A stretch of 64,000 nucleotides of DNA. Origin: Chlorobiota bacterium (GTDB lineage: Bacteria > Bacteroidota > Ignavibacteria > Tepidaquicellales > OLB5). The position numbers and the translations under genes are program-made. Below are positions 51,319 through 55,357 of this stretch, piece after piece. The DNA is taken from positions 718 to 64,717 of the forward strand of contig JAKEEM010000035.1 of NCBI GenBank assembly GCA_022616535.1, written 5' to 3'. How positions within the stretch are numbered: position 1 is the stretch's first letter; every line of letters begins with the position of its first letter. Under the pieces are notes generated by a model. It did not search any database. It was not told the DNA's origin and saw only the letters and a list, made by a program, of their open reading frames with translations.

Positions 51319-52194
51319 ATGAAACGCCTCTTACTCCTTTTGTTCATTGCAGCTCTTACATGGAATTTTAATAAATCGTTTTCATGGGATTCAACAGCAG
51401 CAAAATTTTATCCGCTTGCAGTTGGAAATTTATGGTCTTATCGTCATGTTAACTTCGCACAATTTTCCTGTGTCCCGATGAGTTATTATGACTATGTTGT
51501 AAAAATTGATTCTCTTGTTTCAAGACCTAATGGGAAATGGTATTTTAAATTCAGTGATGGGAGTTTAAGGAGAGTAGATTCAATAACAATGAACGTATAT
51601 GCTTATTACACAAGCGGCGAGTGCTTAATGGACAGCCTTTTTGCCAGGAAAAATGATACAATAGGAAACTGCACGTCACCTCGTCCGATAGTTACAGATA
51701 CGACGCATGTTATGTTTGCAAACACAGACAGGCGCAAACTGAGAATGCAGCAAATGTTAATTGGAGTATTTTATTATGAGCTTGTTGAAGGTCTTGGATT
51801 ATTTCATAGAATCTCGTGTGAGGGAGGCGGCTATCAAATTGGATTAAATGGCTGTATAATAAATGGAATTCAGTATGGGCAAATATTGGGATTTAACCAA
51901 ATCAACTCTGAGGTTCCCGATAAATTCTCTTTGTCCCAAAACTATCCAAACCCGTTTAATCCTTCAACGAAAATTCGCTTTGACATTGCTTCTGTAGGGA
52001 CAGTTCACCGAACTGTCCGCTTAATAGTTTATGATGCACTTGGCAGAGAAATTCAAACTTTGGTTAATGAACAACTCACCCCTGGAACTTACGAAGTTGA
52101 TTTCGATGGAAGCAATTTACCAAGCGGGGTATATTATTACAAATTGGAAACAGAATTATTTACCGAAACAAAGAAAATGGTTTTAATAAAATAA
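51319..52194 (+). CDS. Secreted T9SS cargo, variable-loop family member A
   Basis: AGGAGG SD, signal peptide, FYPLAVGNLWSY...[22 protein letters not shown]. Confidence 0.8.
   Translation: MKRLLLLLFIAALTWNFNKSFSWDSTAAKFYPLAVGNLWSYRHVNFAQFSCVPMSYYDYVVKIDSLVSRPNGKWYFKFSDGSLRRVDSITMNVYAYYTSGECLMDSLFARKNDTIGNCTSPRPIVTDTTHVMFANTDRRKLRMQQMLIGVFYYELVEGLGLFHRISCEGGGYQIGLNGCIINGIQYGQILGFNQINSEVPDKFSLSQNYPNPFNPSTKIRFDIASVGTVHRTVRLIVYDALGREIQTLVNEQLTPGTYEVDFDGSNLPSGVYYYKLETELFTETKKMVLIK
51994..52018 (+). repeat. GTAG REP-like hairpin in frame within a T9SS CTD
   Basis: GTAG-GGACAGTTC-ACC-GAACTGTCC (perfect 9-bp stem); encodes VGTVHRTV. Confidence 0.8.
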
Positions 52195-52197
52195 TAT

Positions 52198-53463
52198 ATG
52201 AATAAAATAATTCTATTTACTTTTTGCTGTATATCTACTGTTAGCCAAAACAGAGCTCAATGGACAGCTGTAGGAAATGTTGGTAATACCATCGATATTT
52301 CAGTAGTAAATGCATCAACTATATGGACGGCTTATAATCTCAATGTATATCTTTCAACAAATGGAGGAGCTAATTTTACCTCAAATTTTTTGGGACCTAA
52401 CCAATTATTTGCTGTATGGGGTATCAGCGCAACTACGTGTTATGCAGGAGACCAGGAAGGCAGAGTCTCAATAACTACTAATGGCGGTTTAAACTGGCAG
52501 GTTGTGCTAAATGCAGGTGGTCCGGAAGGATTTATAAATGATATCGTGTTTTCGCGAACCAATCCTATGATTGGAATGGTATTTAGCGATCCACCTACGG
52601 GAGCGGGTGGAAATGTTTGGCTAGCAAAAACAACTAATGGAGGAAATTCGTGGAGTATTGGAAGCGGCCCTACATCAGCCGGCTTAGTGGGGTCTGTTAA
52701 TTCATTAATGATAATAGATGACCAGTTTTATGGATACGGGTTAAACGGATATAGCCTAGTCAGAATTACAACTAATGGTGGCACTAACTGGCTTTCTCAA
52801 AATCTTGGCACAGGCAGTGGTGATGTAACATCATTGGCTTTCAGCTCTGATAAGATGTCGGGAATAGGATGCAGGTATTTTGGACAGAACATAGCCAAAA
52901 CTACTAATACAGGAGAAAATTGGATAACTCAAAATATAGGGTCATCACAAGCAATAGTGCAATGTAAATGGATTGAGGGAACTGATATAATATATTTATC
53001 AAATGGCCTGATTAGAAAAAGCACAGATAGAGGCAATACATGGAATATAATGACAACCGGAGGGCTTACAAATATAAGATTTATAGATTTTTACAAATCC
53101 GGGAATAACATTTACGGTTATGCAGTGGCTATTTCTGGCGAGGTGTTAAAATTAATTGATAATGTAATGGGCATTCAAACAATAAGTTCAGAAATACCCG
53201 ATAAATTCTCATTATCACAAAACTATCCCAACCCGTTTAATCTAACAACAAATATCAAATTTCAAATCCCAAAATCCGGCTTTGTTAAGCTAACCGTTTT
53301 TGATGTTTTGGGTAAAGAAATTCAGGTATTGATTAACCGGCAACTTTCGCCGGGAACTTATGAAGCTGATTTTGAGGGAAGTAGTCTGCCAAGCGGGGTT
53401 TATTATTATAAAATTGAAACCGATGTTTATGTTGAAACAAGAAAAATGGTTTTATTAAAATAG
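52198..53463 (+). CDS. YCF48/BNR-like beta-propeller with T9SS CTD
   Basis: Repeated TTNGG.NW Asp boxes; CTD. Confidence 0.8.
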   Translation: MNKIILFTFCCISTVSQNRAQWTAVGNVGNTIDISVVNASTIWTAYNLNVYLSTNGGANFTSNFLGPNQLFAVWGISATTCYAGDQEGRVSITTNGGLNWQVVLNAGGPEGFINDIVFSRTNPMIGMVFSDPPTGAGGNVWLAKTTNGGNSWSIGSGPTSAGLVGSVNSLMIIDDQFYGYGLNGYSLVRITTNGGTNWLSQNLGTGSGDVTSLAFSSDKMSGIGCRYFGQNIAKTTNTGENWITQNIGSSQAIVQCKWIEGTDIIYLSNGLIRKSTDRGNTWNIMTTGGLTNIRFIDFYKSGNNIYGYAVAISGEVLKLIDNVMGIQTISSEIPDKFSLSQNYPNPFNLTTNIKFQIPKSGFVKLTVFDVLGKEIQVLINRQLSPGTYEADFEGSSLPSGVYYYKIETDVYVETRKMVLLK

Positions 53464-53469
53464 TTGAAA

Positions 53470-54398
53470 ATGAAAAATTTCTTACTTGCTCTGTTTATTA
53501 TTTCCTTTACAGGGAATTTTAATAAATTTTTTTCACAGGATACAAGTATCGTTAAGTATCTGCCTCTGAAAGTTGGTAACATTTGGGTTTACAACTGGTC
53601 AGGTGTAGGGAATCAGAGTGTAAGTTGAAAATTGTTTCTTCGGCTCAATTCAACAACCATACCTATTATTATTTTGAACAGTTTGGAAATCCCTGCACTT
53701 GTGCTCAATATAGTTATTCGCCATTTTTGATACAGTTAGATAATCCAATTAGGATAGATAGCTCAACTGGCAATATTTTCTGGCGATCCACCACATGCGG
53801 CTGGCATTTTGAAGAAAGCCTTTATGATTCTCTCAAAATGACGCCCGGGGGTTTTGTAAGCAATTCTTGTTTTCTCGTATCAATTCAGGATACAAATAAT
53901 ATATTAGTATTTGCTATACCAGCAAAATCAAAAACCGCCGGACAACCTTTACCTACATATTATAAGTTCAGACGCTATGCACAGAATTTTGGGTTGGTGT
54001 ATTCTATTCAGGGCTGTTCATTTTCAACTACGTGCAGATATACTATTAAAGGTTGTGTATTAAATGGCACAGTTTATGGAGACACAGCATTTCTGGTAGG
54101 AATTAAGCAGATTAATTCTGAAATTCCTGAGCAGTTTACACTTTCCCAAAACTACCCAAACCCCTTCAATCCGTCAGCTAAAATCAATTTCGAAATTCCA
54201 AAATCCGGATTTGTGAAGCTGGTTGTTTTTGATGTTTTGGGCAAAGAAATTCAGGTTTTAGTTGACTGGGTGCTTTCACCGGGAACATATGAAGCTGATT
54301 TTGACGGCAGCAATTTACCAAGCGGTGCGTATTACTATAGGCTTGAAACGGGGCAACTTATAGAAACGAAGAAAATGGTTTTAATAAATAATATGTGA
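53470..54398 (+). pseudogene. Secreted T9SS cargo, variable-loop family member B (frameshifted)
   Basis: ATG 53470 MKNFLLALF...YLPLKVGNIWVY joins ORF 53583-54398 if G3 at 53608-53610 is G4. The end VLINNM* becomes the usual VLIK* with one more A near 54386. Confidence 0.75.
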
Positions 54399-55357
54399 TG
54401 AATAAAATATCAATTGTTACAATATTACTGTCGACCTTCCATGTTTTGGCCCAGGATACAAGCATTACGCAGTATTTACCACTGCAGGTTGGAAATATTT
54501 GGGTTTACCAGTGCAGTCAAAACGGCCAACCTCCTATGTGCGGCGTTTGTTCAAAGAAAATTAGAGTAAATATCACAAGTGCTAACATTATAAATGGTAA
54601 TAGGTATTTTCAGAGTCAGGTAAATACAATACATATTTTCGGTTCATGTCCCGGCTGTTATAGTAACTTGCCGAATTTCAGTTCAAATTTAAGAATTGAT
54701 TCACTTACTGGCAACGTACTTGAATATTTGACCAACGGAGGATGTCCATACAGGCCAAACGAAAAACTTCATGACAGTCTTAAAGCGCGGCTATATGATT
54801 CAATCCGTTATGATTGCCAACCGCCGCAGCAATGGAATGCATACGTATGCAGGGATACGAATAATATAATTATTTTTGGTCAAAGCAGGCAAGCGAGATT
54901 ATATAGTATCCAGTTACTTGAAGGCGGGGGGGGGGAAGAAGATATGTGAAAGGAATAGGGATTGTCAGCAGCGGGTCGGTCTCTGCGTTTTGTAATAATA
55001 ACACTATATTATTGGGTTGTGTAATTAACGGAGTTGTTTATGGGGATACTGGTTTTATGGTTGGTATAAATCAAATTTCTTCTGAAGTCCCCGAAACTTT
55101 TTCACTATTCCAAAACTACCCCAATCCGTTCAATCCGTCAACAAAAATTAAGTTTCAGATTCCAAAGTCTGGTTTTGTAAAACTGACGTTTTTTGATGTT
55201 TTGGGGCAAAGAAATTCAGGTTTTAGTAAACCAAGAGCTTTCGCCGGGAACGTATGAAGCTGATTTTGATGGAAATAATTTGTCAAGCGGGGTATATTAT
55301 TACAAATTGGAAACAGAATTATTTACCGAAACGAAGAAAATGATTTTGGTAAAATAA
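54398..55357 (+). pseudogene. Secreted T9SS cargo, variable-loop family member C (two frameshifts)
   Basis: YLPLQVGNIWVY...; the G10 tract at 54926-54935 needs G11 or G8 to read [11 protein letters not shown]4 at 55203-55206 needs G3 to read LGKEIQ...KMILVK* ending at 55357. Confidence 0.78.

Follow-up and report, generated by a model that had tools for sequence, protein, structure and literature searches.

Beside groES in the genome of a Chlorobiota bacterium from the class Ignavibacteria (assembly GCA_022616535.1, here G000), four genes for cargo of the type IX secretion system (T9SS) occupy positions 51319–55357 of a 64,000-nucleotide stretch of contig JAKEEM010000035.1 (positions 718 to 64,717, forward strand). 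This whole stretch is referred to as the window. Genes A, B and C of this array share a passenger domain from an unnamed family, the remaining gene encodes a propeller, and each passenger is followed by a T9SS tail. The reading we favour, though by no means firmly, is that the array encodes surface-displayed proteins, likely binders, whose cassettes are likely swapped by recombination in the tails.

Genes and features of the array

The features of the array and its immediate surroundings are as follows (window coordinates).
51316..51394, + strand: signal-peptide DNA of A, 79 nt, 73% identical to B 53467-53545
51319..52194, + strand: gene A, intact, with signal peptide, passenger (51385-51888) and T9SS type A tail (51889-52194)
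52121..52169, + strand: perfect tract of 49 nt in the tail of A, common to the tail of C
52198..53463, + strand: propeller gene, Asp-box/BNR-type, intact, with a T9SS tail within the homogenised set
53169..53425, + strand: tail of the propeller gene, where the X4 contig diverges (9 differences) into a different gene
53470..54398, + strand: gene B, family member, with one frameshift near 53620 (first-frame stop 53626-53628)
54398..55357, + strand: gene C, family member, with two frameshifts; its start overlaps the stop of B (TGATG)
54926..54935, + strand: G10 run, first frameshift of C, one of 4 G/C runs of at least 9 in the genome
55203..55206, + strand: G4 run, second frameshift of C, within the tail
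55284..55332, + strand: the same perfect 49-nt tract, in the tail of C
55381..55413, + strand: intrinsic-terminator-like hairpin of 15 pairs, end of the array
55558..57378, + strand: arylsulfotransferase-like T9SS cargo gene beyond the terminator, with a tail outside the homogenised set

Read from the groES side, the order is A, the propeller gene, B, C and the hairpin, with groES divergent from the array. Of the four genes, A and the propeller gene alone are intact. The tail of A scores 34.3 bits against PF18962 (cut-off 27) and 37.7 against TIGR04183 (cut-off 23); the propeller gene and the 3′ frame of B also pass these cut-offs, and the frameshifted tail of C is below them. The signal peptide of A was judged by inspection, from a basic start, a hydrophobic stretch and a small-residue cut site. 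Repeated TTNGG.NW motifs mark the propeller gene, which matches NF045728 at E 6e-9, far under that model's cut-off.

An initial annotation of the locus had described A, B and C as sharing motifs in the same order, and all three genes bear this out: PLxVGNxWxY (51412 in A, 53563 in B, 54479 in C) and R(I/V)DSxTxN (51571, 53751 and 54692) are followed by E...DSL, DT, GLGL/NFGL/GIGI and GC(I/V)(I/L)NG, the last two of C being in another reading frame. The four Cys motifs that it quoted are also present, CTC and CSFSTTC in B and CGVC and CPGC in C, that is, all in the frameshifted genes and none in A. Leader DNA was said to be common to A and B, and the 15-mer GGAATTTTAATAAAT does occur in both (51362 and 53513), but it is not an untranslated leader, because it lies within signal-peptide coding DNA. 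The block closes with one terminator, as had been proposed.

Assembly error was rejected as the source of the frameshifts. A Logan contig (X1) from run X1, probably the source sample, matches 52140-55313 throughout (0 differences, 0 gaps), and the break of B recurs in a second sample, run X3 (contig 53508-53662, 0 differences); the breaks of C are covered by the X1 contig alone. B and C are therefore broken genes. Another frameshift-split T9SS tail was found in G000 by tblastn (C4:17771-18062), and relatives also carry broken family members, at L030 8442-9346 (genome G006) and L071 11575-13693 (genome G005), one of which holds the first position of its groES locus. Run X3 further contains, over window 55350-56746, two alleles of the sulfotransferase-like gene, one identical and one diverged (134 differences in 946 nt), which indicates that related strains or species co-occur in that sample.

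The genome around the window amounts to 2.89 Mb in 77 contigs, at 98.3% completeness. It encodes the T9SS machinery proteins SprA (TIGR04189) and PorU (NF033707), both above cut-off, about 200 T9SS tails (211 tblastn rows; 201-202 once filtered) and recA. A perfect inverted repeat upstream of groES, TTAGCACTC-N9-GAGTGCTAA (51160-51186), which we take to be CIRCE, lies 133 nt from the start of the array; this is its sole exact copy in G000, and of 77 fetched loci 35 contain it if up to 2 mismatches are allowed. Since the repeat is overlapped by an extended -10-like site that faces the array, the array might be under shared heat-shock control. A promoter scan returned 34 sites against 26.7+-4.7 in shuffles and was uninformative. 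The arylsulfotransferase-like gene, a frequent right flank of the groES-adjacent locus, is followed by two ABC transporter genes. On the minus strand, 44995-45525 encodes an exported-looking, Cys-rich protein of 176 residues with a Lys-rich tail and no Pfam match at E<=0.001.

The passenger family and its predicted fold

The passengers of A, B and C are 24-34% identical, which upholds their proposed paralogy, and the domain spans about 170-195 residues before the T9SS tail. In tblastn searches of G000, A-C and B-C are linked at E 1e-5 to 2e-7 and A-B at E 0.001, and three further members lie on other contigs (C56, C3 and C44). At named loci, the nearest relatives of A come from three metagenome-assembled genomes of Ignavibacteria and, weakly, one of Caldithrix. 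A family profile collects 2,722 representatives (50% identity) at E<=0.001, 1,027 at 1e-10 and 208 at 1e-30; the 1,027 clusters agree with the earlier idea of a repertoire on one scaffold. Homologs counted with this profile, as the initial annotation had advised, occur in 36 of the 41 genomes covered from the family and order (0-21 per genome), and a phylum-wide sample gave matches in 30 of 301 genomes at E<=1e-8, with at most 11 candidates scored per genome. Two to four copies of the domain occur in 28 of the top 150 representatives. When 40 long homologs were scanned, 36 matched a T9SS tail, 12 a BNR/YCF48/Vps10 propeller and none a catalytic family.

An alignment of 43 family sequences has no credible match in Pfam or NCBIfam, and the PDB sequence search returned 3 matches at chance level (E 0.28-1.5). 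Neither an enzyme family nor a protease domain was found in Pfam, NCBIfam or PDB sequences, and Pfam scans gave no leucine-rich repeat (LRR) family, the model being a single beta-sheet. Membership of the DUF3108-like family PF21347 was rejected by sequence: its profile matches none of the 43 members and nothing in G000, and HHalign against 8 PF21347 members gave a probability of 0.5%. A phage origin was rejected as well: a tblastn search of 50,697 phage records with A gave no match, and no viral fold matched at E<=0.001. A literature search with subscription papers mostly outside its coverage yielded no description of the family; one supplement of PMC10392669 contains neither an Ignavibacteria nor a T9SS term, and the available portions of PMC12675784 and PMC11205867 add nothing on function. 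Judged by the number of its clusters, this unnamed family makes up a sizeable portion of the T9SS secretome.

AlphaFold2 models of A (pLDDT 92.9) and of a long Cys-rich member (pLDDT 89.7) predict a 12-strand sheet with one short helix of 4 residues. The best solved match of both is the LolA/YmcC-like lipoprotein 4FVS (BDI_3050), at Z 10.1 and a root-mean-square deviation (rmsd) of 3.9 over 147 aligned residues for A, and at Z 10.3 and rmsd 4.1 over 156 for the second member. Foldseek lists 4FVS, 3FZX (second, E 0.0037), MucB, LolA, VioE and EPDR1 at E 0.003-0.05. 3FZX is described as a YmcC fold of DUF3108 in the available text of PMC4364669. LolA matches the models at Z 6.0-7.3, and Atlas neighbours include DUF3108-like clusters at TM 0.69-0.79, under the Atlas naming bar. 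The domain is predicted to form an open sheet of LolA/YmcC type that lacks a helical lid; as modelled, it has the YmcC/DUF3108 kind of fold, yet it is not a member by sequence. With that class (4FVS BDI_3050, 3FZX BF2203; LolA/LolB, RseB/MucB, VioE, EPDR1) it would have an unclosed antiparallel sheet in common. It differs from the class in having no sequence match, in being predicted to be T9SS-exported and not lipid-anchored, and in its many Cys. The lipid carriers LolA and LolB place a helical lid over a hydrophobic cavity, whereas both models here are lidless.

Variability was measured in 89 domains from 20 genomes, leaving out the duplicate loci L034/L035 and 9 partial open reading frame hits, B and C among them, that span fewer than 160 profile positions. 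These domains form 43 clusters at 50% identity, 23 of them singletons. Five Cys-rich hairpin tips vary (A 20-39, 55-61, 73-78, 122-132 and 141-153), as does the loop 93-102. Entropy in these segments is 2.7-3.4 bits and their length varies, in the tips up to 6-29 residues; the motif segments at the base have 1.0-2.0 bits and almost fixed length. Variation is not confined to loops, as had been supposed, since 30 of 48 high-entropy positions fall in predicted strands. A Cys at A145 is always accompanied by one at A29 (9/9 domains), another tip pair is correlated at r 0.8, and Cys of tip 1-2 co-occur with those of tip 11-12, as expected if the tips adjoin. By strand order, the five tips would point the same way, at one end of the sheet.

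The polar residues R63, D65, S66, E79, D83 and S84 are invariant or nearly so. The domain of A has 6 D-S/T sites, all of which, like the conserved DS and DT motifs, fit D(S/T)(A/I/L/V/M/T), the Bacteroidota O-glycosylation sequon according to the available text of PMC12871550. This motif is 7.9-fold enriched in the domains, which are homologs and not independent, and E(S/T)x is not enriched. Across G000, 183 T9SS cargo proteins show an enrichment of 1.8-fold, compared with 1.14-fold for 890 cytoplasmic proteins; D(S/T) alone is not enriched. The pattern is a hint of active Bacteroidota-type O-glycosylation in this lineage of Ignavibacteria.

Tails are more alike within an array than passengers

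Relatives carry different sets of old variants at one fixed locus. Among 15 groESL loci, fetched out of 40 relatives and selected for flanking DNA, 12 have 1-8 family members (one broken) and 3 have none, so the array is not invariant and its content differs between relatives, in line with the initial annotation. Order and partners also vary (for example PPBPBo, PPPPPBPooo, PBo and PPP, where P is a family member, B a propeller and o other cargo), even among genomes of one genus. The interleaved propeller had been called unrelated; by a rough motif rule, however, propellers are 44 of the 163 T9SS genes in the fetched loci and the usual neighbours of the domain, to which they are fused in 12 of the 40 long homologs. 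The arrays L028 and L060 lack them. A second, unrelated cargo type is found in the same arrays (L020 4431-5840, L022 3251-4735, L023 4440-5885 and L072 3322-4761) and moves among them, its bodies being 94-95% identical and its tails 66% identical in DNA.

Tails sort by genome and passengers do not. On FastTree trees of 87 genes from the 20 genomes (two further genes lacking a full tail were left out), genome labels change 40 times on the tail tree (null 68.5+-1.9; 0/300 shuffles as low) and 66 times on the passenger tree (null 68.4+-1.8; 44/300 shuffles as low). The nearest tail DNA lies in the same array in 28 of 39 cases and the nearest passenger in 2 of 39, one of these an artefact of the truncation of B. 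Growth mainly by local duplication, as first proposed, is not supported by these data: 6 of 89 domains have their nearest passenger in their own genome, against 5.1 expected at random, and only 1 of 18 passenger pairs at least 70% identical lies within one genome. Neighbouring unrelated genes have tail DNA up to 92% alike, and passengers that are 87-88% identical in protein carry tails only 68-71% identical in DNA.

When the tails of A, the propeller gene, B and C are each compared with the 201 tails of G000, the other three come out on top every time, and the sulfotransferase-like gene beyond the terminator is outside this set. Genome-wide codon bias is ruled out as the cause by the same ranking. 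Perfect tracts of at least 30 nt join 6 of 144 near pairs of tails, against 11 of 19,827 on other contigs, and the 49-nt tract of A and C is the second longest in the genome, contig overlap set aside. Such tracts also occur between other neighbouring T9SS genes of G000 (C18:24490/25878, 71 nt; C45:17768/19832, 48 nt; C61:11871/14895, 41 nt).

In close cross-genome pairs, body DNA identity is 82-90% (top pairs) and drops inside the tail; the synonymous difference (pS) rises from 0.31-0.52 in the body to 0.61-0.76 in the tail of the same gene. The passenger values are also below those of the flanking ABC genes, 0.74-0.83 for the three of four pairs that have them. A contig from another study (X4), representing a near-identical strain, is identical to G000 over 52140-53168, shows 9 differences in the tail of the propeller gene and then runs on into a gene start absent from G000; the new junction resembles a family junction in L064, and two of the differences are also seen in run X5. 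That runs X4 and X5 lack cover over B and C was given no weight. Module exchange, which the initial annotation had included in its proposal, is supported.

Change in the passengers is slow. Pairwise Nei-Gojobori estimates for 7 unsaturated independent pairs give nonsynonymous to synonymous ratios (dN/dS) of 0.04 at conserved, 0.10 at middle and 0.17 at variable sites; no positive selection was found in these counts, which single selected sites could escape. Each variant is under purifying selection, B and C are decaying, and neither fast diversification of the array nor 'hypervariability' in the sense of ongoing change is supported. The absence of a reverse transcriptase or recombinase, remarked on earlier, holds up: PF00078 has no match in G000 (98.3% complete; controls match in 3/14), and no recombinase or transposase open reading frame was seen in window 44,000-64,000. 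A template repeat, which had been suggested as a check, was not found by blastn (word 7) of the A, B and C bodies, where only short paralog matches appear, the longest 71 nt, in the C56 paralog. A diversity-generating retroelement (DGR) was rejected on these grounds: no reverse transcriptase, no template-like second copy and low dN/dS.

Origin and role of the repertoire

The favoured reading involves the following mechanism. Every gene has tail DNA on both sides, that of its upstream neighbour in front and its own behind, and RecA-type crossover or conversion in two successive tails would replace a unit consisting of tail end, ribosome-binding site, signal peptide, passenger and tail start. 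Whole cassettes could be deleted, inserted or replaced in this way, and conversion would keep the handles alike. Diversity would then come from reassortment of a large old pool and not from a mutator, and unused cassettes would decay, as B and C have. The T9SS-tailed proteins are predicted to be displayed on the surface, where five variable tips at one end, stapled by variant-specific disulfides, would make up a binding surface and the conserved end might be O-glycosylated at its D-S/T motifs. Purifying selection on old variants suggests that each keeps a fixed target. A binding role is proposed because of the fold class, the lidless sheet, tips rich in Tyr, Gly, Ser and Cys and the lack of catalytic partners; the target would most likely be an amphipathic molecule of the cell envelope, such as a lipid, glycolipid or lipoprotein, and this is the weakest step of the scheme.

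Similar arrangements are known from other T9SS bacteria. According to the available portions of PMC10392669 and PMC8400371, the tandem LRR locus of Flavobacterium psychrophilum likewise consists of genes with a signal peptide, a variable body and a T9SS tail at a fixed locus with conserved flanks; its content differs between genomes, recombination proceeds without mobile-element genes, and the proteins have been proposed as binders or phage receptors (PMC10392669; PMC8400371). The array described here is different in that the body is predicted to be a single non-repetitive beta-sheet domain without LRR repeats, the variants are old, with a mean identity of 33%, and under purifying selection, exchange points lie in the tails, unrelated cargo is interleaved and no mass of gene fragments is seen. 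The KLIKK proteases of Tannerella forsythia are also clustered T9SS cargo with differing bodies and unusually similar tails, but there the bodies are known proteases and the tails virtually identical, as the available text of PMC4404884 reports. Here no protease domain was found, and DNA identity between tails is 68-76%, reaching at most 92% in relatives. With DGRs the array shares only the concept of variable binding residues carried on a constant scaffold; reverse transcriptase, template repeat and positive selection were all sought here and not found.

Several observations weigh against the favoured reading. Homogenisation occurs genome-wide among neighbouring T9SS genes (31/132, expected 1.3) and is not specific to the family; non-family cargo at the same locus shows the same tail behaviour, and even the terminal sulfotransferase gene has a tail that diverges faster than its body. 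Passenger pS in the four close pairs is near that of groEL (0.39-0.40). The trees are explained without exchange between lineages if tails undergo local conversion while passengers are inherited vertically and lost, and the strain-level switch is seen in one X4 contig with a depth of 3.85. As for the fold, structural matches have 3-14% identity and an rmsd of about 4 A, no Foldseek E is <0.001, membrane barrels also reach Z 7-8, and 4FVS itself is without known function. The placement of the tips on one face comes from strand order and Cys co-occurrence, not coordinates, and tips rich in Tyr, Gly, Ser and Cys speak for a binding surface but not for a lipid.

Some credit, though well short of an even chance, goes to an ordinary birth-and-death family, in which old paralogs are inherited vertically and lost randomly, conversion rewrites only the tails and passengers do not move between lineages; binding would still be possible. 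Purifying selection, the decay of two of the three copies in this array, genome-wide tail homogenisation and the saturation of most between-genome synonymous distances all suit such a history. Passenger transfer between species is put no higher than likely, because groEL synonymous distances are as low as those of the closest passengers. However, 43 clusters among 89 domains, 23 of them singletons, and 1,027 overall would call for a very large ancestral array, the gene at the X4 junction is absent from G000 though the neighbouring 1 kb is identical, and order differs between genomes of one genus. At the other extreme, a programmed diversifier (DGR, shufflon or G-run phase variation) is largely refuted and very improbable: the G10 run of C is one of only 4 long G/C runs in the genome, but the second break of C lies in its tail, dN/dS is low, and reverse transcriptase, template-like copy and recombinase are lacking in the searches given above.

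The function could also differ from binding. A glycosylated surface coat, or a decoy for phages or predators whose variants change what attackers see, would account for the graded enrichment of the sequon from cytoplasmic proteins through other T9SS cargo to the domains, and F. psychrophilum LRR arrays are linked to phage challenge in the available text of PMC10392669. We regard this as unlikely, given that escape should leave positive selection at exposed sites, where dN/dS is 0.17, that several genomes have 0-1 copies and that D-S/T motifs may be structural turns. Slightly less likely again, the domain could be enzymatic itself or could partner the propeller proteins encoded next to it, as an accessory or by binding substrate. 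Its invariant or near-invariant polar residues, the abundance of propellers at these loci and their fusion to the domain would fit such a role, and VioE, which is catalytic, demonstrates that the fold class can be. Yet the conserved residues lie in turns at what would be the closed end, the putative open end varies freely, no enzyme family is matched in Pfam, NCBIfam or PDB sequences, and the arrays L028 and L060 are free of propellers.

The use of a secretion tag as a recombination handle is not new, as similar arrays have been published; the novelty here lies in the family itself, in the fold and tip anatomy predicted for it, and in the separate histories that bodies and tails have had at a fixed locus. 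The array illustrates how such a tag may double as a handle, so that a secreted repertoire turns over without a mobile element. If the tips bind, the domain would be a natural single-domain binder scaffold with high predicted fold confidence that tolerates tip lengths of 6 to 29 residues. It is a bolder and rather doubtful proposal that Ignavibacteria share more than 1,000 binder variants on one disulfide-stapled scaffold, traded between species via the tail-DNA handle and recognising, together with propellers, the envelopes of prey or partners. Should cassette trade prove true, these bacteria would possess an antibody-like repertoire built by the trade of cassettes and not by mutation.

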